Assembly (NCBI GenBank): GCA_902803575.1
Contig: CADCQK010000259.1
Span: 1 to 56,889 of the forward strand
Direction of reading: 5' to 3'
From: Oscillospiraceae bacterium
GTDB lineage: Bacteria; Bacillota; Clostridia; Oscillospirales; Oscillospiraceae
DNA: 56,889 nt
Of the stretch, positions 4,622 through 49,635 are shown piece after piece. The notes beneath the pieces are model-generated. The model had not been told where the DNA came from, did not search any database, and saw nothing but the letters and a program-made list of their open reading frames with translations. Within the stretch, counting starts at the first letter, position 1; the number at the start of each line of letters is the position of its first letter. The translations under genes were made by a program, and so were the position numbers.

Positions 4622-4628
4622 GGATACC

Positions 4629-10216: not shown

Positions 10217-10281
10217 TTATAATAGTGACAAATGTGTTGTTTTTGTAACTATTTGGAAAAAGATGCAAGGAGGAAATGCCA

Positions 10282-29000: not shown

Positions 29001-29016
29001 AATCAGCGCGTTTTTC
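28986..29016. terminator. Bidirectional rho-independent terminator closing the minus-strand block
   Basis: AAAAA-ACGCGCTGA-AA-TCAGCGCGT-TTTT. It overlaps the stop codon at 28998-29000. Confidence 0.85.
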
Positions 29017-30373: not shown

Positions 30374-30394
30374 ATGAAATCCTCTTCATTCGAT

Positions 30395-30427
30395 TTGACT
30401 GCCTGCTCTTGCGGAACAGGCAGTCAA
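30395..30427 (-). other. Perfect 11-bp inverted repeat (intercistronic stem-loop)
   Basis: TTGACTGCCTG-11 nt-CAGGCAGTCAA between the lyase stop and the beta-subunit SD. No U-tract on the transcribed strand. Confidence 0.5.
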
Positions 30428-30435
30428 TTTGTAAG

Positions 30436-31581: not shown

Positions 31582-31650
31582 TTGTTGCTGCTTCCTTTCG
31601 TCTTGCCGTACCGGTATCCCTGCCGGTACAGCGGAAATCCATGGCCGGGA

Positions 31651-32553: not shown

Positions 32554-32589
32554 GTTCAAATCCTTTCTCCGGCAGTGCCGGACGATGTA

Positions 32590-33720
32590 TTATCCGTTCA
32601 GATCGTCGATCAGTTCGTCGATGGCCGCCCGGTGATCGAAAATGATTGGCGGCAGCTTCCGGGTCAGTCCCTTGTGGATGCGGCAGTCGATGAAGGCTGC
32701 CTTGCCGCAGTCCTTCAACTGAGAAATGGCCTCAATCAGTTCTTCTTTCGTGGTGACCGCGTGGCCGACGGTCGCGTAGCCGCAGGCCTCCGCCGCTTTG
32801 GTAAAGTCCACAAGATGTCCCGCCGAGGGCTGACCGCCCACGGACTCATGGGCGCCGTTGTTCAGCACCACATGGAGGAAGTTTGGCGCCTGCACCTTGC
32901 TGACCATGGTCATGGCACCCATGTGCATCATGGCGGCGGAGTCGCCGTCCAGCGCCACGACGTGCCGTTCCGGTCTGGAAAGCGCGATCCCCAGGGCAAC
33001 CGAGGAGCAATGTCCCATGCTTCCCACATTCAGGAAATCCCGGGCTTTCGTCTCTCCCCGCTTCTCTCTGAGGAAAAACAGTTCTCTGGTGGCGCGTCCG
33101 GTGGTGGCACTGTAGACGGTAACCTCCGGCATGTGGTCGAGGATCACCTCAATGGCCTCTTCCCTGCTCATGGGATAGACATCATCCACATTGTTGGGCT
33201 TGTCGGGATCCGCCATGACGCCCTTGGGAGCAATGAGCGCGTAGATGCCGCGGGTCTCTTTGCAGTAGGTCACCGCTCGCTCCACGGTCTCGCTGAACTT
33301 CCGGTCGTCATCCTCCAGAATCGTATAAGGGATGTGCATCACATCCAGCAGACCCGGGGTGATCTCCCCCTGGAGCTTGTGCTGGGGGTGGTTTGGCTCT
33401 GTGTTTCCCTGGCCGCGCCAGCCGATCAGCAGCAGCATCGGAACAGCGTAAACGTCCCGGTCTGCCAGGCTGGCCAGGGGGTTAATGGTGTTGCCCATGC
33501 CGCTGTTCTGCATGTAGACCAGCGGGATCTCTTTGGTGGCGAAGTAATGCCCCGCCGCGATGCCCACGGCGTTGCCCTCATTGGCGGCGATCACGTTCCG
33601 ATCGCCGCAGTGGAGAAGCGCATAGTTGCAAAACCCGTTCAGATAGGAGTCCGGCACACCGGTGAAATAGGTCACGCCGTGATCCCGGAGGGTTTGAAAT
33701 ACGTTGTTCTGGTCCAGCAT
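32590..33720 (-). CDS. Single-chain ThDP-dependent decarboxylase of the phosphonopyruvate / sulfopyruvate decarboxylase family
   Basis: N-terminus YFTGVPDSYLNGF, then ANEGNAVGIAAGHY, LVYMQNSGMGNTINPL, LLLIGWRG, and a ThDP motif region ALDGDSAAMMHMGAM...NNGAHESVG. At 376 aa it is a fused alpha+beta form. Confidence 0.75.
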   Translation of the reverse strand: MLDQNNVFQTLRDHGVTYFTGVPDSYLNGFCNYALLHCGDRNVIAANEGNAVGIAAGHYFATKEIPLVYMQNSGMGNTINPLASLADRDVYAVPMLLLIGWRGQGNTEPNHPQHKLQGEITPGLLDVMHIPYTILEDDDRKFSETVERAVTYCKETRGIYALIAPKGVMADPDKPNNVDDVYPMSREEAIEVILDHMPEVTVYSATTGRATRELFFLREKRGETKARDFLNVGSMGHCSSVALGIALSRPERHVVALDGDSAAMMHMGAMTMVSKVQAPNFLHVVLNNGAHESVGGQPSAGHLVDFTKAAEACGYATVGHAVTTKEELIEAISQLKDCGKAAFIDCRIHKGLTRKLPPIIFDHRAAIDELIDDLNG

Positions 33721-34701
33721 TTACTTTTTCTCGCCCCCTACCGAGCCCTTGCCCTTGTAGAGCGTGAAATACTCCGGGCTGTCGCCCTTGGTGATGGCCC
33801 AGGCCTGCTCAAAGGCCTCCACCACGTCCTCCGGCAGCGGGCCGGCCTGGATGGTCTTCATGTTCTGCTGCAGATGGTTCAGCTTGGAGGCGCCGATGAG
33901 GATCGCGTCCCCCCGGTCGCCGTTCAGCATCGAATGATAGGCCAGCCAGCGGTAGGTGGCCTCGATGCTGGTAATGCCGTGCTTTGCCGCAGCGGCTTTG
34001 ATGAGATCCACCGCGTCAAAGAAGCTCTTCTTCCAGTAGCGTCCCTGATAGTTGGGCCGATGGGTGAACCGGCCGTCGGTGGGCGCGTCCGTATAGGAGC
34101 CGTACTTGCCTGTCAGCAGACCGCCGCACATGGGGTTATAGGCATAAAACCGCATGCCGAAATGGTTCAGACAGTCGTTGAGCTCCGCCTCGGCTCTGCG
34201 GGTCAGCGGATTGTAAACACCCTCGAAGACCGTGGGCTTCACCCAGCCGTGCCTGTCGCAGATGTGCCACACGTCGGTGACCATCCAGGCCGGGAAATTG
34301 GAAATGCCCAGTTCCTTGAATTTGCCCTGATCATGGAGATCCGCCATGGCCTCCAGAACGGAGATCACGGGCGTGGCGGGGTCCGGGAAATGCAGGAACA
34401 TGATGTCCGCGCAGTCCAGCTTCATCCGCTCCAGGCTCTCGTTGACCTGCATATAGGCCGCTTCCGCGTCCAGCTTGCCGGTGATGCGGGGATTCACCTT
34501 TCCCGCGATCTTGAAGGGCCGGTTCAGGTTCGGCAGCACCTCGCCCAGCAGCCGCTCGCAATTGCCCTCGTTATAAACATAGGCAGTGTCCAGCTCATCG
34601 TAACCCGCATCCAGAAATGCGTTGATAAAAGACTCCACATCCGGGGAAAACACGGATTCCCCGAAGGTCATGGTCCCAAGAATCAGTTTTACGTTGTTCA
34701 T
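33721..34701 (-). CDS. Aldo/keto reductase
   Basis: LGTMTFG, LDTAYVYNEG, HFPD and a LIGASKLNHLQQN-type C-terminus. The stop TAA abuts the next ATG. Confidence 0.85.
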   Translation of the reverse strand: MNNVKLILGTMTFGESVFSPDVESFINAFLDAGYDELDTAYVYNEGNCERLLGEVLPNLNRPFKIAGKVNPRITGKLDAEAAYMQVNESLERMKLDCADIMFLHFPDPATPVISVLEAMADLHDQGKFKELGISNFPAWMVTDVWHICDRHGWVKPTVFEGVYNPLTRRAEAELNDCLNHFGMRFYAYNPMCGGLLTGKYGSYTDAPTDGRFTHRPNYQGRYWKKSFFDAVDLIKAAAAKHGITSIEATYRWLAYHSMLNGDRGDAILIGASKLNHLQQNMKTIQAGPLPEDVVEAFEQAWAITKGDSPEYFTLYKGKGSVGGEKK

Positions 34702-34715
34702 GCCATCACTCCTCC

Positions 34716-36050
34716 TTATAGTTCCCTGATCAGGGCATCGACCGGGGCATCGGTCCGATATGCGGTTTGATAGACCGAATTGCTTGTGTCAGGCGAGATG
34801 CCGGCGTATTCCATCAGACCGTCGTAGCGCTCCCGGAATTCCCGGTCATCCAGCGGGTTTTCCGGCTCCCCTTTCGGGAAATCCACGCGGTCGGTGAAAG
34901 TGCCGTCCTTCGTGCGGATCGTGACCACCGCCGCCTGTACATCGGGGAACACGGCACTCAGCTCCGCATCCGCAGAAACCTTGACCTTTTGAGTCAGATC
35001 CAGGACCGCGGCGCCCTGCACAGCCTCCTCCGTGAACTCCTGCAAGCCCGCTTTCCCAAAGAGCAATCCCGCCGCCGTGGCGTAGGGGATGCTCATTTTG
35101 GCGCTGTAGCTGCCGGGGATCTCCGTATGGTCATGGCCGCTGACAGCGAGATCATAGGTCCGGATCGAAATCGATTCCACATCCTCCGGCTTCACCCTGC
35201 TGCGCAGATGGATCGCCGCCTCCACCGCAGGGTGGGTATAGCGGCAGGAGGCATAGGGCTTCGTATAAGACTTCATGATGGCATAGGTGCCATTCAAGAA
35301 CACCGGCTGCAATTCAACAGATTCCTTGCCGGTCATCATCTTCAGAAAGCCGCGGCCGCCCAGCGGGTCGCTGTGTCCTTTGAATCCGCTCCTGGCCAAT
35401 TGCAGCGCCGTGAGCGAAAGCAGCGCCGTCTTAGCCACATTATAGGGCTTCAGCTCACTGCCGTCATCCAGCACCTTCAACATGCCGCTGGCAGCCACAC
35501 AGGCACAGGCAAAGGCCTGAAACCGCTCCTCCTCCGAGAAGTCCAGCAGATAGGCTGCCGCCAGCGTTGCGCCCAGCGTGCCGCAGGTGCCGGTGGCGTG
35601 GTAGCCCATGGCCTTGTGCCCTGGCTGGATGGACACTGCCATGGTGTAGGACGCCTCATAGCCGGTTATCGCCGCCCGGAGCATCTCATCCACTGAAAAA
35701 CCATATCGCTGGCACAGCGGGATCAGCAAACTGAAGATCGGGCTTCCCAGATGGATGATGCCGGAGTTGGTGCCATCGTCAAAATCCAGCGCGTGCCCGT
35801 TCAGGCCGTTCAGAAAGACCGCTTCCTTCAGCACCAGATCCCTTCCGGTTCCGATGGCGCGGAAGGCGCCCTGCTCCGGCTCCGCGAAGGCGAAATAGCG
35901 ATCCAGCTTTTCTCTCTGGAATCTCGCCCCGGCGCAGGTCACAGCCAGATAATCCAGCAGGCTTCGACGCGCGCGGGCCATGACGGTCTCCGGAACCGGT
36001 TGATTCCACACGCCGTCAATGGCTTTCAAAAAATCGATCGATTGATTCAC
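34716..36050 (-). CDS. MmgE/PrpD family protein, paralog 1
   Basis: GTG start 7 nt after GGAGG. ARRSLLDYLAVTCAGA, ALDFDD and HLGSPIFSLL motifs, with the two-domain PrpD layout. Confidence 0.8.
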   Translation of the reverse strand: MNQSIDFLKAIDGVWNQPVPETVMARARRSLLDYLAVTCAGARFQREKLDRYFAFAEPEQGAFRAIGTGRDLVLKEAVFLNGLNGHALDFDDGTNSGIIHLGSPIFSLLIPLCQRYGFSVDEMLRAAITGYEASYTMAVSIQPGHKAMGYHATGTCGTLGATLAAAYLLDFSEEERFQAFACACVAASGMLKVLDDGSELKPYNVAKTALLSLTALQLARSGFKGHSDPLGGRGFLKMMTGKESVELQPVFLNGTYAIMKSYTKPYASCRYTHPAVEAAIHLRSRVKPEDVESISIRTYDLAVSGHDHTEIPGSYSAKMSIPYATAAGLLFGKAGLQEFTEEAVQGAAVLDLTQKVKVSADAELSAVFPDVQAAVVTIRTKDGTFTDRVDFPKGEPENPLDDREFRERYDGLMEYAGISPDTSNSVYQTAYRTDAPVDALIREL

Positions 36051-36102: not shown

Positions 36103-37893
36103 TCACGGGACAGAAACCTGTACAAAATCGCTGGAGATCTGACCATAGTCGGTCTCGAACTCCACCTTCAGAAGCCATGTGCCCGAATCGTGATTCGTGA
36201 GCACATAGCCGTTGGCCTGCTCCTCCGCTGTGAGGGCGTAAGCGCGGGAAACCGCCATATAGTCCCGGCTGGTCTTCGACAGAACACCGCCGGCATTGTT
36301 GGTATCCGGGTAGCACCAGGCATACCAGGTCGGCTTTGCGTTGGAGGAGGAGAATGTGAGCTTCACATTGCCGTCCTCCAGAACCTCGGCGCCGATCCGG
36401 GTATCGACCACGAGGAAGCTGGCGGGGCGGCTCTGCCCCTCGGGCCCGGTCAGAAACACCTGATAGGATCCGCTGCTGAGATCTTCGTACCGCAGGCAAA
36501 AATCCTCCGGAATCGCCGAAACAGAGACCACTTCGCTGCCCCGTGTGAGCACGGCGCGCTCATAGCTTGCCGCGTTCATTACATCGATCTCCACCGTCTC
36601 TCCCAGGGGCCAGTTGGCCTTGTCGCCCCGTCTGGGACAGAGGTTTTCGTTCAGATGGAAGTGCTTTTCCCAGGAAGTATCCGCAGGCGGAACGTCGTTG
36701 ATCTTCGTATAGCGGTAGATATCATACCCAGCATTGAGCCAGTTGTCGTTGAATTCCCGGCGGGAATAGGTGCGGACGCGAACCTGGGGGGCGCGGGCTT
36801 CCGCTTCCACCAGGTTTATGATCCTGCCGTCCGGAGTGCGCTCCACACCGACGATCATGCAGACGTGGGAGTCCCGCTTCAGGATCATGTCCCCCAGGCG
36901 AATGTTGTCGATGCTCTGATCTTCCAGATACACCAGCCCGTCCAGCAAGCCCAGCTGATGGGTCGTATAGATGCAGGGCAGATCGTAGTTATAGCTGATG
37001 AACGACGAACACACGGAGCCATAGTAGGTGCGGCTGTTCCGCAGCTCGGAAACTCTGGTATAGAGATAGGACTTCGGGTTGCTCGCGGCGCTCAGATAGC
37101 TTTCGAAGGAGACCGCGTTGGGCACATACAGCGACTCCTGACGGGTCGAGGAATACATGACCCCATCCACCCGGGTGTCAGGCGCCACGTCCCCCTTCTG
37201 CCCCGGCAGGACCGCCCGGGTGACGATGGAGAGTTCCACGCTCTGCATGGCGCGGTCAATGGCGTTGCGCACGCCCTGGCTGTTCGGCAGGTCGTGAAAA
37301 AGATTCAGCTTCAGATCCGAGACGATGGAGCAGCCTTCAGGCAGCCGGAAATGCTCTGCGTCAAAAGCCGTTCCGTCTGCATAGCCCAGAATAAAAACCG
37401 CATAGCTCGCACCGCTGACGTCGCCGGCGCTGACGGTTCGGGACACTGCGGAAAACTCAGTTCCCCACAGGAATCGGAAATCCGAATCGAAATAGCCAAC
37501 TAAGTATTGCAGCCCGGACGCTGGGTCCCATGTGACTTCGATGGTGCCAAGAGGCCAGAAGCCGGAGCGGAGCCGATTCTCGTTAACGGTATTGTCGCCG
37601 GATCCGTTGGAGACCCGAATGCCGCCAAGAACAAAGTCATCCACCGCAAAACGCCCCGGGACCAGATTCGTTTGGTTCATATCCTGTCCCCCCGCTTCCC
37701 GGAGTACCGCAAACTGCAGCGGGTCCACCGGCGTCGGTGTGGGCGTCTGCTGTACGGGAGTCGGCGCAGTTGTCGGTTCCGCCAGCACATCGCTGGGATC
37801 CGGCTGCCCTGCCACAGGTGCAGCGGTGCCGCATCCGGTCACAAGCATTATGAGTATAATACAAAATAAAAAACAGGTAAGCTGTCTTCCCAT
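36103..37893 (-). CDS. Lipoprotein with a putative NlpC/P60-like (papain-fold Cys-His) domain
   Basis: SD GGGAGA lies 7 nt before the ATG at 37893. Lipobox LVTGC and a Pro/Thr linker. Candidate nucleophile YGSVCSSFISY (Cys310 in track numbering) and GDMILKRDSHVCMIVGV (His358). Confidence 0.55.
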   Translation of the reverse strand: MGRQLTCFLFCIILIMLVTGCGTAAPVAGQPDPSDVLAEPTTAPTPVQQTPTPTPVDPLQFAVLREAGGQDMNQTNLVPGRFAVDDFVLGGIRVSNGSGDNTVNENRLRSGFWPLGTIEVTWDPASGLQYLVGYFDSDFRFLWGTEFSAVSRTVSAGDVSGASYAVFILGYADGTAFDAEHFRLPEGCSIVSDLKLNLFHDLPNSQGVRNAIDRAMQSVELSIVTRAVLPGQKGDVAPDTRVDGVMYSSTRQESLYVPNAVSFESYLSAASNPKSYLYTRVSELRNSRTYYGSVCSSFISYNYDLPCIYTTHQLGLLDGLVYLEDQSIDNIRLGDMILKRDSHVCMIVGVERTPDGRIINLVEAEARAPQVRVRTYSRREFNDNWLNAGYDIYRYTKINDVPPADTSWEKHFHLNENLCPRRGDKANWPLGETVEIDVMNAASYERAVLTRGSEVVSVSAIPEDFCLRYEDLSSGSYQVFLTGPEGQSRPASFLVVDTRIGAEVLEDGNVKLTFSSSNAKPTWYAWCYPDTNNAGGVLSKTSRDYMAVSRAYALTAEEQANGYVLTNHDSGTWLLKVEFETDYGQISSDFVQVSVP

Positions 37894-37981
37894 CCGGCAT
37901 TCTCCCGCGGTGTATTCGAAAAAGCGGATCATCCGCATCTGATTTGTTTTTTCCGGAAACGCCGGAACCGGCAGCCTGAAA

Positions 37982-38728
37982 TCAATGCACAGACCGCGCT
38001 CTCAGGCGTCCGTAAATGCTGAACAGCTGGCGGTCCTCCACGTTTCCGGAAAACTGAAACGCATCGTCGCTCCGCGTCAGAATCATCTCCAGAGGAACCT
38101 CCGGCACCACCTCATGGCGGTAGTCGATGGCGGCGAAGGCCACCTCATACTGCCGCATGGCCTCGATCCCAAAGCTGTTGCACAGCCAGTCGGCATATCT
38201 CGCGTTGTTGACATGTCCATTGATGTCGATATCGGCGTATTGGGGCTGATGCCGAAAGCGCTTCTCTTCACCGGAAAGAGACTTGACGCCCATGGAGATC
38301 TTCACGGGCGGCACTGCCTCCTCCGCATCGGGGATCACAATGCCCCGTTCCGCCGGTGAGACCGCCTTTCTGGTGGTGCGGTCCATCAGCATCAGCAGTG
38401 AGCCGATGCGGACGATCACCGCCCCCCGCGCGTCCGTTACCAGATAGTATCTCGGACAGAACATGGAGCGGGAGCCCTTGGTGAAGGTTCGCACCGTGAC
38501 GCTTTCTCCGAGGCGCGGGTATCGATCCACATAGAGATCGGTCTTGAACAAAACCCATGAGAGATTCTGCTCGGTCAAATCATCATGCCACAGATGCATT
38601 GCAGCGCTGTGCTCGTTGGCCGTGCTCTGGGCCATCTCCAGAACGGAGCGCAGCATCCATTGGCCGTTGATGTCGCACTCACTGGTGCCAAGGTGAAATC
38701 GCTTTTCAAAAAAGGCCTGTGGATCCAT
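37982..38728 (-). CDS. Acyl-ACP thioesterase (FatA/FatB type)
   Basis: Starts MDPQAFFEKRFHLGTSECDINGQWMLRSVLEMAQ. Contains a NLSWVLFK motif and a second hotdog half with ADIDINGHVNNARY. Confidence 0.8.
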   Translation of the reverse strand: MDPQAFFEKRFHLGTSECDINGQWMLRSVLEMAQSTANEHSAAMHLWHDDLTEQNLSWVLFKTDLYVDRYPRLGESVTVRTFTKGSRSMFCPRYYLVTDARGAVIVRIGSLLMLMDRTTRKAVSPAERGIVIPDAEEAVPPVKISMGVKSLSGEEKRFRHQPQYADIDINGHVNNARYADWLCNSFGIEAMRQYEVAFAAIDYRHEVVPEVPLEMILTRSDDAFQFSGNVEDRQLFSIYGRLRARSVH

Positions 38729-38735
38729 GGTTATC

Positions 38736-40079
38736 TCACCCCCGGAGCCATTCCATCGGGTTGCAGAACGGTCGATCCGACGAAATCTCTCCGATTGCCC
38801 TCTGCAGTCCCGCAAGCTGAACCTCATCTGCGAGACCCTGGGCACATACCCGCAGCTTGGCAACGATGTCCTCTGCCGAAAGCGGATTCTCCGGGTCTCC
38901 CTTCGGCACCAGAACCGTCTGCTTCAAACGCCGGCCGCCGCTGGTCAGAATCTCGATCCTGGCGCCGCGGATGCCTCTGCTGCGATCCTCCATGGTTTCA
39001 TCCGGAATCAGCTGGATCCGGTCAATCATGGATCTGATCGAATCGGTCAGACGACCCGGCTGCATATCCTCAACACCGTAGCTGCCGTTCAGCAGGGCGC
39101 AGGCCAGCGTGTACGGGATGGAAAACTTGGTTTCATCCGGATCCCTGGGATACGGGATTCCGGCAAGCTTGATGGCATTGGGATAAATGAAGACGTTGAC
39201 CGTCCGAATCTCCTCCGCCTGCACCTGATCGTGCAGCAGGATCCCCGCGTCAATGCCGCAGTGGGTATGACGGCAGGAGGGATAGAGCTTAAAATAGCAG
39301 TCGTGCAGCAGCAGATGATCCGAGCCGCGCAGACAGCTTTCATCCACATGATCCGTCACGGCATGGAACCAGCCGTTTGGCCCCTCAAGAGACTCCGTGG
39401 GGCCAAGCATGCCTTCCCTGGCGAGCATCGCAGCGAAGATGCCGTTCTCTGCCGCCTTGCCTGGATTGAGCGGCTTGATCGCCGGTCTGGAATCTCCATA
39501 GGACAACAGGCCGCCGGACATGGTGGTGGCAAGAGCAATGGCGTTTTCAAGCCCATTCGCATCCAGGTGATACAGCCGCGCACAGGCAGCTGCACAGGCC
39601 AGAGTGCCTGCCATGCCGGTGGAGTGAAATCCGTGCTGCACCAGCCCGGGCTGCGCCGCCGAGGAGATGCGGATATACGCCTCATAACCCGCAGCGAGGG
39701 CCAGCAGCACGTCATTTCCGGTGCTGCCCAGCTTTTCTCCCAGGGCAAACACAGCGGGAATCAAATGCACGCCCGCGTGTCCGGCTGCCTTCTTGTTTCC
39801 GTCATCCAGCTCGGCGCCGTGACCATAGACAGCGTTCATAAAGGCCGCCAGTCGGGCGGGATATTTTGTTTTCTGAAAGAGCACCGTGCTCTCTGCAGCG
39901 CCGCCCTGCGCATACACCACCGTCTCCACCGCGTCGTTGAAGACCCGGTTCTGTCGATAGCCGGCGCAGGCAGCCGCGAAAAAGTCGGTGATCAGGATCT
40001 GCAGCTGCGATACATCCCGCTCTGAAAGGTTACAGATCGAAACAAGATCGCGCGCCAGTTCCGTTGTCATACCGCCCAT
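38736..40079 (-). CDS. MmgE/PrpD family protein, paralog 2
   Basis: ITDFFAAACAGY, ELDDGN, HAGVHLIPAVFAL, PSCRHTH and a PKGDPENPL motif near the C-terminus. Confidence 0.8.
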   Translation of the reverse strand: MGGMTTELARDLVSICNLSERDVSQLQILITDFFAAACAGYRQNRVFNDAVETVVYAQGGAAESTVLFQKTKYPARLAAFMNAVYGHGAELDDGNKKAAGHAGVHLIPAVFALGEKLGSTGNDVLLALAAGYEAYIRISSAAQPGLVQHGFHSTGMAGTLACAAACARLYHLDANGLENAIALATTMSGGLLSYGDSRPAIKPLNPGKAAENGIFAAMLAREGMLGPTESLEGPNGWFHAVTDHVDESCLRGSDHLLLHDCYFKLYPSCRHTHCGIDAGILLHDQVQAEEIRTVNVFIYPNAIKLAGIPYPRDPDETKFSIPYTLACALLNGSYGVEDMQPGRLTDSIRSMIDRIQLIPDETMEDRSRGIRGARIEILTSGGRRLKQTVLVPKGDPENPLSAEDIVAKLRVCAQGLADEVQLAGLQRAIGEISSDRPFCNPMEWLRG

Positions 40080-40108
40080 TGCTTGCGTTCCCTTCTGATT
40101 TAAAAAGT

Positions 40109-41380
40109 TTATGCCTTAGATTTTTTCGAAAGCTTCTTTCTCAGCTTCCGGTAATCTGCCTTATCGATGAACAGCATGGTTCGAAACGGGATCCCGGTGG
40201 TGCGGCAGAAATACACGATAAACAGGACAGAGCAGACCGCATAGGAGATGACGCTGGCGAGACCGGCGCCGTAGATTCCGGAGATTGGGATCAGGATCAG
40301 GTTTGCAACCACGTTGCTCAATACGCCGATCCCCAGCAGGACAAAGCTCACAACCTGCTTGCCCATGGCAATGTTGTAAGAGGCGATGAGCTTATAATAG
40401 ATCATCGAAAACACACCGGCGAGCAGGATCAATGTGACCTGATACGCGCCGCTGAACTCGCTGCCAAAGGCAAAATCAATGAAGGGCTTGCCCAGCGCGA
40501 TAATGCCCAGCACAATCACCAGACAAACCGTGTTGCTGATACGGATGACATACGCCGTCTCCCGGGCATCCTTGCCCTTGGCGATGTTGGAAACCATGAC
40601 GCCCTTCATGGCGTCGGGGATCATCCAGATCCGCTCCGCCAGAAGCACGCCGACGGAATACACACCGATGGCTGCATCCGCCACACGGCCGTTGAGCATC
40701 AGGACGTCTACCCGATAATTCAGGGTGGTCATCAGCAGAGAGAGCATCGGGAAAAAGCCGAATTTCACCAGCTTCGGGATCCAGATCTTCAAAGACTCCG
40801 AGGGGACAAAAAACCGCTTTCTCCACCAGCCGGTATAGATGAGTGCCTTGGCGACGTCCTTGATGGTGATGACAAACACACCGATGACGAAGGTGGGCTT
40901 CGCTGTGATCCAGAGGATGACCAGGATCACCAGCTCTGCGAACACCACGGCCATGTCTGAGACGCTTCGCTTGTTCGGCACCTCAATCAGCGTGATGTAA
41001 GAGACGATCTTATCGTAGGTCAGCAGCGGCGTGAGAATCAATACGGCGATGTATTTCGCAGGCAGGTCCATCACGGCGATCGCCGCCGCCGAAATTGCCC
41101 CGTAGAAGAGCAGCAGCAGCAGCGAGAGCTTCATGAAGATGGGCATGATATCCACATCGCTGTTGCGCTTGAAGTAGGGATAGGCGTGATAGATGCCCAG
41201 ACCGAACACGATGGAGGTGATGCTGACGATGCTGTTGACCGTCGCCACCTGCCCCTTAATCTCCGCGCCGAGGTATCGGGACTGGAAGATGGTGAAAACC
41301 AGGCCCACCACAACGCCGAACACTTTCGATATGACGGATAAGGAATATGCGTTTGTGAAGAACTTTTTAATTCCGCTCAT
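40109..41380 (-). CDS. Polysaccharide flippase (Wzx, MOP superfamily)
   Basis: About 12 predicted TM segments. N-terminus SVISKVFGVVVGLVFTIFQSRYLG is typical of the Polysacc_synt family. Confidence 0.8.
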   Translation of the reverse strand: MSGIKKFFTNAYSLSVISKVFGVVVGLVFTIFQSRYLGAEIKGQVATVNSIVSITSIVFGLGIYHAYPYFKRNSDVDIMPIFMKLSLLLLLFYGAISAAAIAVMDLPAKYIAVLILTPLLTYDKIVSYITLIEVPNKRSVSDMAVVFAELVILVILWITAKPTFVIGVFVITIKDVAKALIYTGWWRKRFFVPSESLKIWIPKLVKFGFFPMLSLLMTTLNYRVDVLMLNGRVADAAIGVYSVGVLLAERIWMIPDAMKGVMVSNIAKGKDARETAYVIRISNTVCLVIVLGIIALGKPFIDFAFGSEFSGAYQVTLILLAGVFSMIYYKLIASYNIAMGKQVVSFVLLGIGVLSNVVANLILIPISGIYGAGLASVISYAVCSVLFIVYFCRTTGIPFRTMLFIDKADYRKLRKKLSKKSKA

Positions 41381-41415
41381 GAACTGCTCCTTGCTGTCGC
41401 TCCGGCGATGAATGC

Positions 41416-42885
41416 TCAGGCAAGGGCGATCAGCTGCTTTCTGTCGACCTTACCGTTGTAGGTTCTGGGGATCTCCGTAAGCGGCTCGATGAACTTCGGC
41501 ACCTTATAGGCCTCCAGCTTGGCCGCCAGGAACTCCGCGATCTCTACAGCGTCGAAGCTGCAGCCGTCCTTCATGACGACGAACATCTTCAGGCTTTTCC
41601 CGAACATATTGTCATCAAAGGGGATGCAGGCGCAGTCGGCCACCTTCTCAAACCGAAGGAGCATATCCTCCACCTCGGTGGGCGCCACCTTGAATCCGCG
41701 GATGTTGACAACATCATCCCCTCTGCCGGCAAAGTGCAGACAGTGTCTGTCATCAAAGAACATCAGATCTTTGCCGTAGATGTATCCATCCTTCAGCACC
41801 GAGGCAGTCAGCTCCGGCTCATGATAGTAGCCGAGCATGTTCATATCGCTCTTAGAGCAGATCAGGCCTTCTTTGAAGGGCTCGGTGATCTCATTTCCGT
41901 TCTCGTCCAGGAGCTTCACTTCCACCGACGGATACGGCACGCCCAGGCTGTTGATGGTCTCCCCCGGCGCGTTGTACTGGCAGTTGCAGATGCTGCCGGT
42001 CTCACTGCTGCCGTAGCCCTGGTGAAGCCTGGTGTCCGGCAGAAGCTCCATGAGCGTCTCAATGTCCTTCGTGGGGAAGGGCGCGGAGGCAGTGTAAACA
42101 AACTCCAGCTTGCCGTTGAGTGCGGCCAGCTGCTTTTTAGCAAGGGTGATCAGCATCTTCACAGAGGCCGGCGGCAGATAGGTGTGGGTTACCCCATACT
42201 GATTGGCCAGCTGGAAAAACGCGCGCAGATTCTGCACCCCGTCCAGCAAGATCACGGTGCAGCCAACCGCCATGCACTGGTGTACCCGGTGCAGACCGCC
42301 CACATGGTTCAGCGGCGTGGTCACCAGGAACACAGAGTCCTCTTTGAGGCCGAAGGAAGGGTTGATCGCCGCCATATAGGCCTCAAGGCATTTGGAGGAG
42401 AGCATGACGCCTTTGGATTTTCCGGTGGTGCCGGTGGTAAAGATAATCTCCGAGCAATCCGGAGAGACCCCTGCCGGCGTCCAGTCGAAATCCGTCTCAC
42501 GGTCCATATCCACATCAGCAGCGGAGATCCAGTGAAACTCTCCTGCAGGCTGCTCGGGTGAGATCACAAACGCCGCATCCACAAAACCCGCGATATCGGA
42601 AAGACGGTCCACCGGGGCGCGGTTCTCCGCCGGGATATGCACAGCGCCGATGCCCAGCAGCGCATACTCGCAGACGATGTATTCCGCGCTGGGCGTGGCC
42701 ATGGACAGCACATGGCTGCCGGGTTTTACGCCTTTGGAAAGGAACCAGGCCGCTGCGGAACTGATTTTTTGATACAGCTCCTGATAGGTAAGGCACGCGT
42801 CGCCGACGACGAGCGCAAGCTTCTCCGGGGTCTCAATGGCATGCTGCCGGATCAGCCCGGTAACTGACAAGTGTTCCGCGTTCAT
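41416..42885 (-). CDS. ANL-superfamily adenylating enzyme (acyl/aminoacyl--carrier-protein or CoA ligase)
   Basis: SD GAGGTGA lies 8 nt before the ATG at 42885. AMP-binding motifs IIFTTGTTGKSKGV, YGSSETG and GKVDRKQL. Confidence 0.85.
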   Translation of the reverse strand: MNAEHLSVTGLIRQHAIETPEKLALVVGDACLTYQELYQKISSAAAWFLSKGVKPGSHVLSMATPSAEYIVCEYALLGIGAVHIPAENRAPVDRLSDIAGFVDAAFVISPEQPAGEFHWISAADVDMDRETDFDWTPAGVSPDCSEIIFTTGTTGKSKGVMLSSKCLEAYMAAINPSFGLKEDSVFLVTTPLNHVGGLHRVHQCMAVGCTVILLDGVQNLRAFFQLANQYGVTHTYLPPASVKMLITLAKKQLAALNGKLEFVYTASAPFPTKDIETLMELLPDTRLHQGYGSSETGSICNCQYNAPGETINSLGVPYPSVEVKLLDENGNEITEPFKEGLICSKSDMNMLGYYHEPELTASVLKDGYIYGKDLMFFDDRHCLHFAGRGDDVVNIRGFKVAPTEVEDMLLRFEKVADCACIPFDDNMFGKSLKMFVVMKDGCSFDAVEIAEFLAAKLEAYKVPKFIEPLTEIPRTYNGKVDRKQLIALA

Positions 42886-42917
42886 GTTTCCGATCACCTC
42901 TCCAAAACCAACTGGAA

Positions 42918-43154
42918 TTATTTTGCCTGCAGGGTCTCGATCATGCGGGCCATCGCGTCCACAGAATTGAAGTTCTCAGGCACGATCTCATCGATAGAGA
43001 TCTCAACGCCGAATTTTTCGCTCAGCGTCGTGATTAGGAGCATCAGCTCAAAGGAGTCGATGTAACCGCCCTCGATGATGTTGGTGATACCATCCAGGTT
43101 CTTGGTGGGTTTTACGTCATGCAGGATCTGCAAAACCTGTTCACGAGTCGTCAT
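42918..43154 (-). CDS. Standalone acyl/peptidyl carrier protein, DltC-like
   Basis: 78 aa. Phosphopantetheine site GGYIDSFELMLLI (Ser34). The overall pattern resembles D-alanyl carrier proteins. Confidence 0.8.
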   Translation of the reverse strand: MTTREQVLQILHDVKPTKNLDGITNIIEGGYIDSFELMLLITTLSEKFGVEISIDEIVPENFNSVDAMARMIETLQAK

Positions 43155-43170
43155 GGGAATTACCTCCGAT

Positions 43171-44457
43171 TCAAATTGTATTTCTTAAACGATTGGTGGG
43201 ATAAGCCATCTCACTGGCAGCGACACGACGCCGCTCGCCTTTTTCATGATACCCCTCGGTCAGGAACACGATGAAAAACAGCATATAGAAGGTTCCGTGG
43301 GTATGAGGCGTGAAGAACGACAGACCAATCAGGAAGGCCGCCAGCCAGAAGGACCAGCCGCGCAGATCGATCAGGCACTTCAGATAGAACAAATAGGACA
43401 GCAGCGTGCCGACAATGCCGAATTTGTACATGGTCGCGTTGAAGCCGGTCATGTGGAAATCCAGACCGGAGTAGTGGTCGGAAATGCCGAACACAAGCTC
43501 CCATCCGTGCATCTGGCGGATAAACTCATAGCCGCCCTCAACGCGTCCCGAGACGGCGTTCTTGTAGTCAGAGCCGCTGGAGAAGATGCGGATGACGCTC
43601 CGGTGGAAGAAATCGACCTTGAAAAACATAAAGACCAGCACGGCAGTGATCAGAAGCAGAATCGAAAGATTGCGAGGCTGCAGCAGCTTCGGCAGCAGCA
43701 GCTTGCCGTATCTCCGCTTCTCGCTGTTTCTGGACAGATACACCAGCCAGAGCAGCACCGTCGCGATGATGGCCATGCCAGAGGTGGAGAGGATCATGCC
43801 AGCGGACAGGAAAATTGCCTTCCGTTTTGCCCGGAACCCCGCTCCGGAATGGTAGATTTCATACACCAGCGGCGCGAACAGATAGATGAACATGTGAGAC
43901 GGCTCCAGGAAGAAAGCCGAAGGCCGGTAGAAGGAGATCGGTCGGCCGGTGATGCTGTATCGTCCGGTATTGGCAAGCTTGACCCACTGGTTGGCACTTT
44001 TCAGCAGCAGCGAGGTCGGCACCATCTTCAGATGGAAATGCAGCAGATAGTAGCAGAAATACTGCAAAATGATGCCCACACAGGCTGCCATTGAAATGAC
44101 CGTAGCGACTTTGATCACCTTTTTTGCCTCCAGACAACCGGACAAAAACGCCATCGTGAACACGAAATAAACCAGCACGAGGCCCATTTCGCTTGCGCTG
44201 GTGCCGTGGTCAATGATTTTATAAACTTGAAACAAATACAGTCCGCCGAACACATTCAGGCATCTGGACGACAAAACAGGACGGCCCGCAAATAAAGCCA
44301 AAACCAGAACCATGGCAAGTATGATAACGGTAACGCCGCCGTTGATCACACCCTTATAGTTCTGGAGGATCGGCGCGATCGCCACAGCGATCACAGCCAG
44401 TGTGGCTAAATTCAATACACGGGCCTGACTTCTGCCCCGCGTGATGCTTATCTTCAT
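43171..44457 (-). CDS. Wzy-type oligosaccharide repeat-unit polymerase / O-antigen ligase-like membrane protein
   Basis: About 10-12 TM segments, with a periplasmic loop RPSAFFLEPSH typical of polymerases. Confidence 0.65.
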   Translation of the reverse strand: MKISITRGRSQARVLNLATLAVIAVAIAPILQNYKGVINGGVTVIILAMVLVLALFAGRPVLSSRCLNVFGGLYLFQVYKIIDHGTSASEMGLVLVYFVFTMAFLSGCLEAKKVIKVATVISMAACVGIILQYFCYYLLHFHLKMVPTSLLLKSANQWVKLANTGRYSITGRPISFYRPSAFFLEPSHMFIYLFAPLVYEIYHSGAGFRAKRKAIFLSAGMILSTSGMAIIATVLLWLVYLSRNSEKRRYGKLLLPKLLQPRNLSILLLITAVLVFMFFKVDFFHRSVIRIFSSGSDYKNAVSGRVEGGYEFIRQMHGWELVFGISDHYSGLDFHMTGFNATMYKFGIVGTLLSYLFYLKCLIDLRGWSFWLAAFLIGLSFFTPHTHGTFYMLFFIVFLTEGYHEKGERRRVAASEMAYPTNRLRNTI

Positions 44458-44541: not shown

Positions 44542-45105
44542 TCAGGATCCGTGCCGTTGATCGAACCGTTCCCATTCCGCAGCAGCCACCTCCGGGGGCA
44601 TCTGCTGTTTTTTGAACGCGACCGTCTGGTTCTTGCTCATTTTCCGAAGCGCCATGAACATATCAAAGCGCCCGGTGGGCTTGGCGGGAATGCCGGAGGC
44701 AATGGAGTTTTCGGGGATATCCGACGCCACGACGCTTCCGGCGGAGATGATGCAGTTGCGGTTGATTCTCACATTCGGCATGATGATGACGTTCATGGAG
44801 ATATAGACGTTGTCCATCAGCTCGATGCACCCGAGCTTTTCCCGATAACCGAAGTCCGCGTCGGGATCGCAGCCCTTCAGGAAGTTGTTGATCATGTCGT
44901 GGGGAGACAGGTGGGCGCTTTTGTGCACGACCACGTTGTCATGGACCCGGATCAGCTTCGCGTGCAGCGGCAGCAGCCAGGGACCCCACTTGACATTCTC
45001 GCCCATGTGGTCGAAGAGATTGTGCTTGCGAATATAGTCCGCACGCTTGCGGGCGGAACGGCACAGCAGCAGACGGATGCTGTGATAGAGTCTTGCAGCT
45101 CTCAC
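44542..45105 (-). CDS. Hexapeptide-repeat (LbH) acetyl/acyltransferase
   Basis: GTG start 7 nt after GGAGG. Hexapeptide run IELMDNVYISMNVIIMPNVRINRNCIISAGSVVASDIPENSIASGIPAK. Confidence 0.8.
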   Translation of the reverse strand: MRAARLYHSIRLLLCRSARKRADYIRKHNLFDHMGENVKWGPWLLPLHAKLIRVHDNVVVHKSAHLSPHDMINNFLKGCDPDADFGYREKLGCIELMDNVYISMNVIIMPNVRINRNCIISAGSVVASDIPENSIASGIPAKPTGRFDMFMALRKMSKNQTVAFKKQQMPPEVAAAEWERFDQRHGS

Positions 45106-45148: not shown

Positions 45149-45172
45149 GATGCTTCTCAACGTCGAAGCATC
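45149..45172 (-). other. Perfect 8-bp inverted repeat (intercistronic stem-loop)
   Basis: GATGCTTC-8 nt-GAAGCATC, overlapping the stop codon of the sugar transferase gene. Confidence 0.4.
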
Positions 45173-45875
45173 AGGAATGGGGCTCCGGCATTTCCTCCGG
45201 TCTCGGCACGGTGCCGGCTTCCCACTGGGCCTTTCGGTAATCCCAGAAAAGCTCCTGCTTGCCGGCCTCGATGATGTCCGCGTGCTTGAACACCTTGGCC
45301 ACCGTCTGAAACAGGATCTTCACATCCAGCCAGAAGGAGACATTCTCAACATAGTAGAGATCGTATTCAAATCGCTTGTCCCAGCTGGCGGCGTTTCTGC
45401 CGTTGACCTGGGCGAGTCCCGTCAATCCCGGCCGGACCGCATGGCGGCGGTGCTCCGCAGGGGTGTAATACGCCAGAGCCTTTTTGTTCCAGGGTCTGGG
45501 GCCCACAAAGCTCATGTCCCCTTTCAGGATGTTCCAGAGCTCCGGAATCTCGTCCAGGCTGGTGGCGCGCAGCATCCGTCCGAACTTGGTCATGCGCTGG
45601 GCGCTGGGCAGCAAGACACCGTTCTCGTCCACATCGTTGGTCATGGAGCGGAACTTGCAGAGGCCGAACAGCTTTTCCTTGCCGGTCTTGGGGTCGATTT
45701 TGCCGGGACGCTGGTGAACAAAAATGACCGGTGAACCGAGATTCACCTTCACCAGGATCGCCACGATGGCGTACAGCCAGCAGAACAGGATCATTGCAAC
45801 AACAGACAGGACAATGTCGAATAACCGCTTAACGACATTGTTATAAAACTTATGCCTGGGTTCGAGTGTTTCCAT
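45171..45875 (-). CDS. Small monotopic phosphoglycosyl transferase (bacterial sugar transferase, PglC/EpsL/WbaP C-terminal type)
   Basis: KRLFDIVLS, SPVIFVHQRPG, KFRSM, DEIPELWNILKGDMSFVGPRP and GLTGLAQVNGR motifs. ATG at 45875 preferred, with TTG at 45902 possible. Confidence 0.85.
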   Translation of the reverse strand: METLEPRHKFYNNVVKRLFDIVLSVVAMILFCWLYAIVAILVKVNLGSPVIFVHQRPGKIDPKTGKEKLFGLCKFRSMTNDVDENGVLLPSAQRMTKFGRMLRATSLDEIPELWNILKGDMSFVGPRPWNKKALAYYTPAEHRRHAVRPGLTGLAQVNGRNAASWDKRFEYDLYYVENVSFWLDVKILFQTVAKVFKHADIIEAGKQELFWDYRKAQWEAGTVPRPEEMPEPHS

Positions 45876-45898
45876 CACTGATTGACTCCCTTTTATAC

Positions 45899-47218
45899 TC
45901 AAGAATCAAAGAATCTCGTCGTGTCAAACGGCGCAAACAGCAGGCTCCGGCCGTCGGTGTCGTCCACCCGGACGTGCGCCTGGATAAAGTGGATCGTGTC
46001 GGCCATTTCCTCCAGGTCGTTGGCGCGGATCTTGAAGGAGATGACCCGCTGCTGGGTGGTGCCGCGGTCCGGGATGTTCTTCCCCACATAGACGTAGGGG
46101 CTGATATCCAGAACATTTTCCCGCCCGCTGACCGCGCTGTAATCCACGTTGCCGACTTCGCCTGCATGGGCATACATCACATAGGTCGCCATCTGCTCTT
46201 TCAGTTCCGGATTGTCCTTGGACAGCGAGTCTCCCATGGAGCCCGTGAGCGAATGGTGGATCATCATCTTCATGTGATTGATCCCGTTGCAGCGGCTCAG
46301 CAGCTTCCAGTCGTTGCCGCCATTGAGACGGAGGCCCATTTCAAAGGCGACGATCCGGTCATCCGTTGCGATGAACTGGAAGCCGGCGATGCCGTTTTTC
46401 ACGCCGATGTCCCGCAGCAGCGACTTGATCTTTTCATCGATCGTATCCCGGTAGCGCCTATAAAACCGCGACGGCGTGATGGCGATGTCACAGAGGGCAG
46501 CGTATTTCGTTCCCTCTCTGGAGAGGTACTTGTCGTTGATGATCGAAAGGCTGATCTCGCCGTCGGCAATGGTATAGATCGCTGTGATCTCCATGCCGGT
46601 CACATACTCCTCCACCACAACGGTGTGGGTTTCAGAGTTCTTTTCCGCAAAGGCCAGAGCATCGTCCAGCTGCTCCTCGGAGTCGCAGATCGTGATGCCG
46701 ATGCGTCCGCCGTAATCCGCCGGCTTGACGATGACCGGGTAGCGGATCGCGCTCCGGTCCAGTTCCGCCGCATGACCGTTTTTGCAGTACTCGGTGGGGA
46801 CCGGCACACCATGCTTTTCGCAGAGGTGCTTGAACGAGCGCTTGTTGCGCGTCAGCTCCACCTGCTCTGGGGTGACATAGAACGGTGTCCCCAGCAGCTG
46901 GGAGAGCCTGGCGGCATAGAACACCTTGCCCTCACTGTAGCCGGAGAACACACCGCTGACGCCCGCCTCGCGGCACTTGTGAACCAGCGTGTCCATGTCG
47001 GAATAGTCGATGTCCCACGCCTCATCAGCGATGGACTTCGCCGGGAGCTTCGAGTAGTCGCTCCCACGCTCAGTGACAATGGTATACACGCCCATCTCCC
47101 GCGCCTGGCGCACGATGTTCATCAGATTCGTCTCGCCGCCGATGATCAGCAGCTTCTTTCCTTTGGCCTGTTCAAACATGTATCTTTTTCCTTTATCCGA
47201 CTGACAGCGGTCTGTCAT
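45899..47218 (-). CDS. ATP-grasp ligase (439 aa)
   Basis: Pre-ATP-grasp KKLLIIGG, followed by KHGVPVP, YPVIVKPADYGG, VVVEEYVTG and FQFI...FEMGLRLNGG. ATGA overlap with the upstream gene. An alternative ATG at 47179 is possible. Confidence 0.75.
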   Translation of the reverse strand: MTDRCQSDKGKRYMFEQAKGKKLLIIGGETNLMNIVRQAREMGVYTIVTERGSDYSKLPAKSIADEAWDIDYSDMDTLVHKCREAGVSGVFSGYSEGKVFYAARLSQLLGTPFYVTPEQVELTRNKRSFKHLCEKHGVPVPTEYCKNGHAAELDRSAIRYPVIVKPADYGGRIGITICDSEEQLDDALAFAEKNSETHTVVVEEYVTGMEITAIYTIADGEISLSIINDKYLSREGTKYAALCDIAITPSRFYRRYRDTIDEKIKSLLRDIGVKNGIAGFQFIATDDRIVAFEMGLRLNGGNDWKLLSRCNGINHMKMMIHHSLTGSMGDSLSKDNPELKEQMATYVMYAHAGEVGNVDYSAVSGRENVLDISPYVYVGKNIPDRGTTQQRVISFKIRANDLEEMADTIHFIQAHVRVDDTDGRSLLFAPFDTTRFFDS

Positions 47219-48177
47219 TTTTTCAGGATCTTGACCTCATTGTATTTCATCATGTAGATCCCCTCATCGTAATCGCCGATGCGCTTTTCGTTGGCCCGGC
47301 CCTGCAGATTATTCAGGATCAGCTTCATGTGGTCGCATCCGGCCTCATAGGCGTGGGGATAACCGCCGCCGAAACGGGGGTTGACTTCGGAGATGTAGTA
47401 GACGCCGTCCACTTCGAAGATGTCAATGTCGATCTGGCCCCGGTAGCCGGCCTCCAGAACGAATTTCTCAATGAGGGCAAACAGCGCAGGGTCCTTGAAG
47501 CTGACCGCCTTGTCCGTCTCACCGGCCCGCATCAGCAGCTTTTTCTTCGTGAAGATCGAGACGACCTCCCCGCTGATCATGTCGATGTAGACGTCCGCGC
47601 CGATCTCCTGCCCGTCCAGAAACTCCTGGATCATCAAATCATTACGCTGCCGGTAGAGCAGATCGATGGTCTCCCGGTCATAGACCTTGGAGATGCTGAT
47701 GGAGGCAGAACCCCGATAGGGCTTGACAAAGACGGGATAAGACACCAAACCGGACTCCACAGCCCGGTAAAACGCCTCCGGCTCTCTCCAGGATCTGGCG
47801 CAGTGATAACCGTGGTCCGTGAGCCACCGGAACATCTGCATCTTGTCCAGAGACATCTCGCAAAGCTCATAGGAGCTGCCGATCACGGTGGTGCCGACAG
47901 CTTCGAACAGAGACGCGTTTTTCGCCAGCAGACTCAGCTCCGGGTCGATCAGACTCAAAACGCCGTCGATCTGCTCCTTGCGGCAGATGTCCAGAATCAC
48001 GTCAATATAGCCCGGAGCCGTGATGGGCGGAACAATATAGTGCTTGTCGGCATCATAGATTGCAGGCCCGAAGGGACTTGCATCCGTCGCTACAATCGTA
48101 CCGACGCCGGCAAAGGCGGCTTTGAAATACTGGACAACTTTATCTCTGGTGCCAGCGGCCAGAATCAGAAAATTCAT
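47215..48177 (-). CDS. ATP-grasp ligase (320 aa, carbamoyl-phosphate-synthase L-chain-like)
   Basis: MNFLILAAG, YPVFVKPYRGSASI, MIQEFLDGQEIGADVY and ISEVNPRFGGGYP motifs. Confidence 0.8.
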   Translation of the reverse strand: MNFLILAAGTRDKVVQYFKAAFAGVGTIVATDASPFGPAIYDADKHYIVPPITAPGYIDVILDICRKEQIDGVLSLIDPELSLLAKNASLFEAVGTTVIGSSYELCEMSLDKMQMFRWLTDHGYHCARSWREPEAFYRAVESGLVSYPVFVKPYRGSASISISKVYDRETIDLLYRQRNDLMIQEFLDGQEIGADVYIDMISGEVVSIFTKKKLLMRAGETDKAVSFKDPALFALIEKFVLEAGYRGQIDIDIFEVDGVYYISEVNPRFGGGYPHAYEAGCDHMKLILNNLQGRANEKRIGDYDEGIYMMKYNEVKILKK

Positions 48178-49500: not shown

Positions 49501-49635
49501 GTTACATACATCCCAACGATCGTAGTTTTTGTGTGAAATCTGCGTCTGCGGATCGAGCCGCATGCCGCGAAAGAGAAGTCTATTCCGGCCGCACGGTGAT
49601 TCCGCGCAGGCACTAACAAATCATCCGCTCCATCC

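Follow-up and report, generated by a model that had tools for sequence, protein, structure and literature searches.

To our knowledge, the decoration of surface polymers by way of a carrier protein is known mainly from the Dlt system, with the O1 antigen of Vibrio cholerae as a poorly studied second example. Here we analyse a stretch of 56,889 nucleotides (nt) from an Oscillospiraceae bacterium (assembly GCA_902803575.1, contig CADCQK010000259.1; the 56.9-kb window), in which an adenylating enzyme of the ANL superfamily, a stand-alone carrier protein and a hexapeptide-repeat acyltransferase (referred to as Hexapep) are encoded in an operon for a cell-surface glycan. We consider it probable that these three proteins constitute a three-part cytoplasmic acylation module within a Wzx/Wzy-type glycan operon of a Clostridia bacterium of the Acutalibacteraceae/Oscillospiraceae-like kind.

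In DltABCD, a dedicated adenylating enzyme loads a stand-alone carrier of ∼ 78 amino acids via the serine of a DS motif, and the acyl group is destined for an envelope polymer. The same arrangement is recognizable here, but the ligase is not of the DltA type, the carrier scores below the DltC cutoffs and DltB and DltD were not found in the window. The linked transferase is instead a soluble protein of the left-handed β-helix (LβH) type, so that transfer is expected inside the cell. The N-acylation of perosamine in V. cholerae O1 is said to involve RfbL/WbeL, which would activate 2,4-dihydroxybutanoate onto coenzyme A (CoA) or onto RfbK, a carrier (PMC12208996; PMC3441752). This tetronate module, which we liken to our locus by description and not by sequence, is in that sense the nearest described analogue: it, too, combines an ANL ligase with a dedicated carrier in a glycan (O-antigen) locus and is described as serving to place a short hydroxy acid on an amino sugar. 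Its on-carrier reductases RfbM/N are absent here, and our locus further differs in its Gram-positive, clostridial host, in the presence of a thioesterase, in another acid-making module and in the LβH-carrier-ANL fusion that occurs in some genomes. As the transferase of the V. cholerae system, Morona and colleagues reportedly proposed in 1995 a hexapeptide acetyltransferase of the CysE/LacA/NodL type (RfbO). In the literature we found no glycan module of carrier, ligase and hexapeptide transferase beyond the statements on V. cholerae RfbL/RfbK.

LpxA and LpxD are LβH enzymes that move an acyl group from a carrier thioester to the hydroxyl (LpxA) or the amine (LpxD) of a UDP-sugar. The similarity of Hexapep to them is generic (25-32 bits, far below cutoff), and their donor is the housekeeping fatty-acyl-ACP (acyl carrier protein) rather than a dedicated carrier loaded by an ANL enzyme. 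Non-ribosomal peptide synthetases (NRPS) of the Pls/PosA type (TIGR02353) combine an adenylation domain, a carrier domain and a non-canonical, hexapeptide-like acyltransferase domain, which delivers the acyl group from the carrier domain to a free acceptor; the same parts are fused in one of the related loci (L130, see below). The match to that model reaches only 22 bits (cutoff 423), however, and domain order, the lack of membrane segments, the non-amino-acid substrate and the glycan locus are all different. Bacillosamine-type pathways of Neisseria and Campylobacter (PglC/PglE, PglB/PglD, PglB2) share with our locus a DegT aminotransferase, an LβH enzyme, an ATP-grasp enzyme, a Bac_transf phosphoglycosyl transferase, a flippase and a polytopic transferase, and also that glycosyltransferases are scarce or missing. 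Their LβH enzymes, in contrast, use acetyl-CoA and carry a PglD_N domain, which is absent here, and neither a carrier nor an ANL ligase is part of these pathways.

Hexapep (187 amino acids, 44542-45105, minus strand) matches PF00132 with 38.3 bits (cutoff 27). Its best matches in the Protein Data Bank (PDB), at ∼ 1e-9, are LβH structures: maltose and galactoside O-acetyltransferases, DapH and QdtC. The protein is basic (pI 9.6) with a conserved basic C-terminal tail, and the carrier (78 amino acids, 42918-43154, minus strand) is acidic (pI 4.4). We examined genomic neighbourhoods seeded with homologues of the ANL ligase (489 amino acids, 41416-42885, minus strand) by scoring their open reading frames (ORFs) with the window proteins; the loci are given as L numbers. 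Carrier, Hexapep and ANL are directly adjacent, in that order, in L003/4, L007, L008, L009, L010, L011 and L019. These triads lie within glycan loci with DegT, a phosphoglycosyl transferase and a flippase, which as a rule also have a homologue of the 428-amino-acid membrane protein of the window (Memb428). The minimal cassette, in L019, reads DegT-Memb428-Wzx-Carrier-Hexapep-ANL and contains no other transferase candidate. The same triad is also present in L088, in L167 and on the contig P0009, and the closest relative (L087, 78%) has the window's own order of Hexapep, membrane protein, carrier, ANL, Wzx and thioesterase. Hexapep partners are 58-65% identical where the ANL enzymes are only 38-41% identical, and H69-D70 and N73 are invariant.

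The linkage also holds in the reverse direction. Metagenome contigs were scanned with an alignment of Hexapep only, which yielded 44 loci with members of at least 54% identity. The carrier gene is adjacent or fused in all 38 loci with enough flanking sequence, and an ANL gene lies within 700 nt in 36 of the 36 loci that could be evaluated. In L130 (5992-8454), a single ORF of 820 amino acids comprises Hexapep (residues 5-186), carrier (217-291) and ANL (329-815), and its carrier part contains the serine motif GILDSLSL. The same LβH-carrier-ANL fusion occurs in L131 (3947 to the end) and L136 (6001 to the end). The fusion together with the invariant adjacency is strong evidence that Hexapep, carrier and ANL act together. 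We therefore propose that Hexapep is the transfer catalyst and uses the acyl-S-carrier as its donor, the choice of donor being read from the linkage. A preliminary description of this DNA had stated that the locus has no obvious catalyst for the transfer step; Hexapep, as a conserved partner that is fused in some loci, speaks against this.

The ligase is 489 amino acids long when read from its ATG, the mechanically called ORF starting at a GTG and comprising 493. It matches PF00501 (213 bits, 7e-63) and PF13193 (50 bits). With AMP-binding and AMP-binding_C domains, the core motifs A3 (TTGTTGKSKGV, from residue 150) and A5 (YGSSE, within YGSSETG from residue 291) and the A10 lysine, it is a member of the ANL superfamily, in agreement with the preliminary description. 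Among NCBIfam models, one for a subfamily of long-chain-fatty-acid CoA ligases comes first (254 bits, cutoff 476); the 25 top-ranking models all describe acyl-CoA ligase types, and the ligase scores below the cutoff of every one. DltA is neither among these 25 models nor among the 60 best PDB matches. The motif PLNHVGG of the ligase aligns with the FDxS motif of LgrA and places a histidine at the position equivalent to Asp235, the aspartate that binds the α-amino group. The ligase is thus not DltA-like, as had been suspected from its motifs. LgrA, an NRPS-type amino-acid adenylation domain, is the top PDB match (1e-65), but its score sums two domains (93.7 + 128.9 bits) and the match is no better than that to 4-coumarate ligase; in view of the histidine at the Asp235 position we rejected an amino-acid activator.

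The pocket code of the adenylation domain, read from the alignment, is H-V-L-A-Y-A-G-S-I-K, with a conserved Arg/Lys and a His on the same helix. Across the clostridial clades the corresponding aligned positions are H, V/A, L, A/S, Y, A/S, a small residue, any residue, I/V and K. Homologues of the ligase form more than 100 clusters at 56-78% identity, mostly from Oscillospiraceae-type metagenome assemblies. ANL-carrier pairs of Bacteroidales (L026-L048) group in an outgroup clade of their own, in which the pocket residues differ (Glu at position 299). We infer that the ligase activates a non-amino carboxylic acid and loads it onto the carrier. The preliminary description had held out a plain acyl-CoA synthetase as the alternative; the genomic context is that of a dedicated pair of ligase and stand-alone carrier.

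The carrier matches the PP-binding domain PF00550 with 25.2 bits (cutoff 20.8). The strings EGGYIDSFELMLLI and VEISIDEIVPENF, which had been quoted for it, are both found in the protein, and the serine of the DS motif is residue 34, the predicted phosphopantetheine site. D33-S34 and the motif ENFNSVD are invariant among three aligned carriers, one from each type of context. The protein had also been called DltC-like. Ser34 and the generic PP-binding domain are present, but the resemblance to DltC stays below the cutoff of both DltC models (NF003464, 34.9 bits against a cutoff of 68; TIGR01688, 25.1 against 52.35). Sequence comparison with the PDB places the carrier equally near to DltC and to PltL and PigG, which are stand-alone peptidyl carriers.

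Between Hexapep and carrier lies the gene for Memb428 (43171-44457, minus strand), a polytopic membrane protein of 428 amino acids and ∼ 12 transmembrane helices, which ends 16 nt upstream of the carrier gene. It belongs to a family of 239 proteins (E ≤ 1e-5) without a Pfam domain, and neither Pfam nor NCBIfam returns a match for it even at E ≤ 10. An AlphaFold2 model from an alignment of 38 sequences is confident (pLDDT 88.3, pTM 0.89). A Foldseek search of the PDB with this model gave a best match of E = 1.3 with a TM-score below 0.2 and no resemblance to DltB, MBOAT, WaaL or SEDS proteins; a Wzy_C domain or a WaaL/Wzy-like fold was likewise not detected by Pfam or by the PDB fold search. 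The helices of the model and the positive-inside rule indicate 12 transmembrane segments with both termini inside. In this inferred topology the invariant residues H84, R178, E185, H188, R290, R305 and H387 fall outside, in two large loops. Invariant residues in outside loops are the usual pattern of Wzy and WaaL enzymes. Unrelated polytopic proteins (hhalign probability < 1%) take the slot of Memb428 in L088 and L001/L090, where the triad is kept, and in L167 and on the P0009 contig a bona fide Wzy_C protein is found in its role. Memb428 is thus not an obligate partner of the carrier. Judging from the gene slot and the loop residues, it most likely fills the place of a serotype-specific polymerase or ligase of the Wzy type and is not an acyltransferase.

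It had been pointed out in the preliminary description that DltB and DltD are missing. We confirmed this for the window: Pfam annotation shows neither, and phmmer searches with two MBOATs, a DHHW protein and a 359-amino-acid partner protein as queries gave no match among the window ORFs of at least 55 amino acids. More distant ANL-carrier relatives (36-50% identity) do pair with MBOATs. The gene order is carrier-MBOAT-359-amino-acid protein-ANL in L015 (7000-11473), where the 359-amino-acid protein has no Pfam domain, and carrier-MBOAT-ANL-DctM in L024 (8065-12850); in L005 (547-6778), DHHW and MBOAT genes lie beside carrier-ANL-CitMHS. These Dlt-like four-gene sets come from metagenome-assembled genomes of Acutalibacteraceae and Ruminococcus, and their ANL enzymes are not DltA. 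This suggests the esterification of a wall polymer with an organic acid rather than with D-alanine. The carrier of L005 is homologous to that of the window and shares the invariant ENFNSVD. In an approximate neighbour-joining tree of the ligase, clades with a Hexapep partner interleave with clades with an MBOAT partner, indicating that the ANL-carrier cassette has been combined either with a cytoplasmic LβH transferase or with a membrane-bound MBOAT. The Dlt logic claimed for the pair thus stands at the level of the family, but in the window itself the pair is accompanied by the LβH enzyme.

The third gene downstream of the ligase, after those for the Wzx-like and PrpD proteins, encodes the double-hotdog acyl-ACP thioesterase of the preliminary description (248 amino acids, 37982-38728, minus strand). 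Both hotdog domains score above cutoff (PF01643, 85 bits; PF20791, 56 bits), the DxNxH motif is intact (DIDINGHVNN, from residue 166), and the best PDB match is 2OWN (1.4e-17). The gene starts with the ATG at 38728, 7 nt after the stop codon of the PrpD gene; a longer, TTG-initiated ORF that reaches 38863 was discarded. Relatives of the thioesterase at 38-90% identity form a small set of ∼ 30 clusters, and generic gut thioesterases are ∼ 29% identical. The clade at ≥ 45% identity lies in triad loci wherever this could be checked, and relatives at 42% and 38% are found in unrelated contexts. In L090 the order is Hexapep-carrier-thioesterase, with the thioesterase directly adjoining the carrier. 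It follows the flippase in L087, L096 and L098, lies between Wzy_C and Wzx in L167 and is adjacent to PrpD also in L003 and L087. It is missing from the triad loci L007-L011, L019, L088, L097, L105, L106 and L113. A metagenome scan seeded with the thioesterase alone gave 99 pattern matches, of which 0 were confirmed. A clade that is confined to triad loci and is absent from many of them argues for a dedicated yet optional accessory, not for a link to fatty acid synthesis. We doubt, from the context of the locus, that the thioesterase acts on the acyl-ACP of fatty acid synthase (FAS); probably it edits or recycles the dedicated acyl-carrier.

A metabolic module at the distal end of the operon (29023-36050, minus strand) is the probable source of the acid. 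It comprises the second PrpD-family protein of the operon (34716-36050), an aldo-keto reductase (33721-34701), a thiamine pyrophosphate (TPP)-dependent decarboxylase (32590-33720), a 302-amino-acid protein of no family (31651-32559), a PF15617 C-C lyase (30436-31581) and the β (29864-30373) and α (29023-29889) subunits of a Fumerase. The same module lies beside the triad in L088, L090, L101, L118, L167 and on the P0009 contig, and LysR regulators with organic-anion transporters of the DctM or CitMHS type lie beside the ANL gene in L003, L087, L019, L011, L024, L005 and L089. The decarboxylase passes the NCBIfam equivalog model for phosphonopyruvate decarboxylase (397.6 bits, cutoff 312.5), but the signature of phosphoenolpyruvate (PEP) mutase, ED[KQ]x5NS, is missing from all frames of the window, so that the enzyme may act on a substrate other than phosphonopyruvate. 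The constant neighbours of the decarboxylase are the 302-amino-acid protein and the C-C lyase, which has faint similarity to CitE. The former has no Pfam or NCBIfam relatives and its single-sequence AlphaFold model has a pLDDT of 43.5; for neither of the two did a PDB sequence search return anything below E = 0.8. A literature search for phosphonopyruvate decarboxylase together with PrpD found nothing relevant. The recurrent module and transporters, taken with the pocket positions of the ligase, point away from a fatty acid and towards a small, hydrophilic acid that is probably anionic or hydroxylated. Loading of the carrier with the acid made by the metabolic module, one of two readings offered in the preliminary description, fits this synteny.

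Taken together, the data are consistent with the following model of the acylation module. The DegT aminotransferase would make a nucleotide-linked amino sugar, which is the likely acceptor. The ANL ligase would adenylate a small, hydrophilic, non-amino acid and transfer it as a thioester to the phosphopantetheine on Ser34 of the carrier; the acid would stem from the downstream module of PrpD, fumarase-like, C-C lyase, TPP decarboxylase and reductase proteins, and in other genomes may be imported by DctM or CitMHS. Hexapep would then use the loaded carrier to acylate the sugar, most likely at the new amino group, alternatively at a hydroxyl. The phosphoglycosyl transferase, predicted from its family to start the lipid-linked sugar, the Wzx-like flippase and Memb428 would subsequently assemble and export the glycan, and the two ATP-grasp ligases would probably add further groups by amide bonds. 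As an optional accessory, the thioesterase would clear, by hydrolysis, acyl-carrier that is stalled or carries the wrong group.

Several observations weigh against this model. By sequence, Hexapep resembles acetyl-CoA-dependent O-acetyltransferases of the MAT, GAT and WbbJ type, and it could tailor the carrier-bound acid instead of carrying out the final transfer. The ligase may also work with CoA, and some members of its ANL family may be plain CoA ligases of acid catabolism. In L089 (10001-14012) an ANL enzyme with 59% identity lies with LysR and CitMHS, with no carrier or Hexapep within 10 kb, and in L001/L090 carrier and Hexapep are ∼ 12 kb from the close ANL homologue. Neither a 4,6-dehydratase nor a phosphopantetheinyl transferase was found among the window genes. 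Finally, the roles assigned to the families rest on computation, and the pocket positions come from an alignment, not from a structure.

We weighed three other explanations. In a Dlt-like system, the acyl-carrier would dock on a membrane protein that hands its acyl group to a wall polymer outside the cytoplasm. This protein would be Memb428, as a non-MBOAT analogue of DltB, or an MBOAT encoded elsewhere, and Hexapep would be an ordinary acetyl-CoA-dependent acetyltransferase. The position of Memb428 16 nt from the carrier gene, its lack of a family or PDB fold match despite a confident model, the co-occurrence of its homologues with the triad in many loci and the MBOAT partners of related ANL-carrier pairs would all suit such a system. 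We nevertheless regard it as unlikely: the triad persists where Memb428 is swapped for an unrelated polytopic or Wzy_C protein, its invariant Arg, His and Glu residues follow the Wzy/WaaL pattern, and without it the cassette has no polymerase or ligase. No MBOAT was found in the window, and the fusion of Hexapep, carrier and ANL would be left unexplained. The same fusion is also left unexplained by a metabolic role of the carrier akin to that in citrate lyase (CitC/CitD/CitE). Here the ligase would prime the carrier, the C-C lyase would form or cleave a C-C bond on the thioester, the thioesterase would free the acid and the ATP-grasp enzymes would attach it to the sugar. This scheme would make sense of the faint CitE similarity of the lyase, of the thioesterase occurring only in loci that also have the metabolic module or its transporter and regulator, and of the abundant ATP-grasp ligases at the locus. 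The ATP-grasp domain of Neisseria PglB2 indeed puts glycerate on an amino sugar. In L007-L011 and L019, however, the triad has no C-C lyase, PrpD or thioesterase within reach, and the MBOAT-linked relatives lack the module as well, so that we judge a metabolic carrier improbable.

The other reading in the preliminary description was that the thioesterase frees an acyl chain from FAS and the ligase reloads it onto the dedicated carrier to lipidate the polymer. A bona fide PF01643/PF20791 thioesterase with an intact DxNxH motif is present, and the best NCBIfam matches of the ligase are named fatty-acid CoA ligases, if all far below cutoff. Yet the thioesterase clade is small, sits inside glycan loci, adjoins the dedicated carrier in L090 and is missing from many triad loci. 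What recurs around the pair are di/tricarboxylate-type transporters, LysR regulators and the organic-acid module, and no lipid genes; these contexts show no signs of fatty acids. We consider this route very unlikely and favour the cytoplasmic module, with a small organic acid on the carrier.

The operon is a tight array of 19 genes, all on the minus strand, from 49563 to 29023, with intergenic gaps of -26 to 84 nt. A strong hairpin resembling an intrinsic terminator (28987-29016, minus strand; a 13-bp stem followed by a T run) closes the array. Upstream of Hexapep it encodes the DegT/DnrJ/EryC1 sugar aminotransferase (48190-49563; PF01041, 2.9e-67; partial matches to the LegC/PseC type), a PylC-like ATP-grasp protein of 320 amino acids (47215-48177), a second ATP-grasp protein of 439 amino acids (45899-47218) and the small phosphoglycosyl transferase (Bac_transf, 243 amino acids, 45171-45902; PF02397, 7e-61). 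Orthologues of DegT with 63-84% identity occur in the Hexapep-partner loci L003, L009, L010, L011 and L019, and ATP-grasp genes recur beside the triad in related loci. In L130, the gene for the fusion protein sits between those for the phosphoglycosyl transferase and DegT. Downstream of the ligase follow the Wzx-like flippase (423 amino acids, 40109-41380), which has weak NCBIfam matches to HfsF and MATE and whose orthologues in L003 and L090 carry Polysacc_synt, the first MmgE/PrpD-family protein (447 amino acids, 38736-40079; PF03972 and PF19305), the thioesterase and a predicted lipoprotein of 611 amino acids (36103-37938; lipobox LVTGC) that matches no Pfam or NCBIfam model. In L090 a homologue of the lipoprotein follows the thioesterase, and in L117 (201-1535) and L128 (749-2083) homologues immediately precede the carrier gene, with PrpD on their other side. 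Housekeeping genes flank the array, with Tmk, NFACT, mini-RNase III, FtsK and BacA to one side and a pyruvate kinase (PK) barrel protein, an LCP protein and FtsW to the other, and by Pfam annotation the rest of the window holds unrelated housekeeping genes.

On the contig of L001/L090, from a closely related genome, a related operon occupies the same chromosomal site, between Tmk/NFACT and PK/LCP. Compared with 29023-50298 of the window, its phosphoglycosyl transferase is 99%, its Hexapep 96% and its thioesterase 90% identical. The other glycan genes differ and include GT2, Stealth, a UDP-glucose dehydrogenase, Acyl_transf_3 and a different polytopic protein. With different glycan genes at one site, the locus resembles a region that varies with serotype and surrounds a core of conserved acylation and metabolic genes. 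The PK-barrel-only protein (326 amino acids, without the C-terminal domain; 28020-29000, plus strand) is convergent to the end of the operon and is encoded in the same place in L090 (19655-20635). An aconitase-family protein of 756 amino acids is encoded ∼ 20 kb from the locus (6673-8943, minus strand). The window further encodes a WecG/TagA-type glycosyltransferase, two surface proteins with SLH domains, one an S8 protease and the other of the NlpC/P60 type, and an LCP ligase (3896-4663, 10276-13872, 21087-23258 and 26427-27968). Proteins of this organism are probably anchored to a secondary cell-wall polymer, and this polymer is a plausible place for the glycan of the locus to end up.

As a tentative and more specific hypothesis, we suggest that the triad might decorate an amino sugar in a clostridial wall glycan with a small anionic or hydroxy acid that has so far not been described. 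This acid would be made by a phosphonopyruvate-decarboxylase-like enzyme without PEP mutase, two PrpD proteins, an Fe-S hydro-lyase, the PF15617 lyase and the 302-amino-acid protein, and the ANL-carrier pair would be interchangeable between LβH and MBOAT transferases. If true, this would define a family of systems akin to Dlt in which an organic acid takes the place of D-alanine in the esterification of wall polymers. The module is widespread among Clostridia of the rumen and gut, with over 100 ligase clusters at ≥ 56% identity and dozens of independent loci, and its three small soluble proteins and the short list of candidate acids provide experimental handles. The repeated switching between LβH and MBOAT partners helps to annotate 'acyl-CoA ligase' and 'hypothetical' genes in polysaccharide loci, and a new glycan substituent would alter the surface charge and antigenicity of abundant gut anaerobes.

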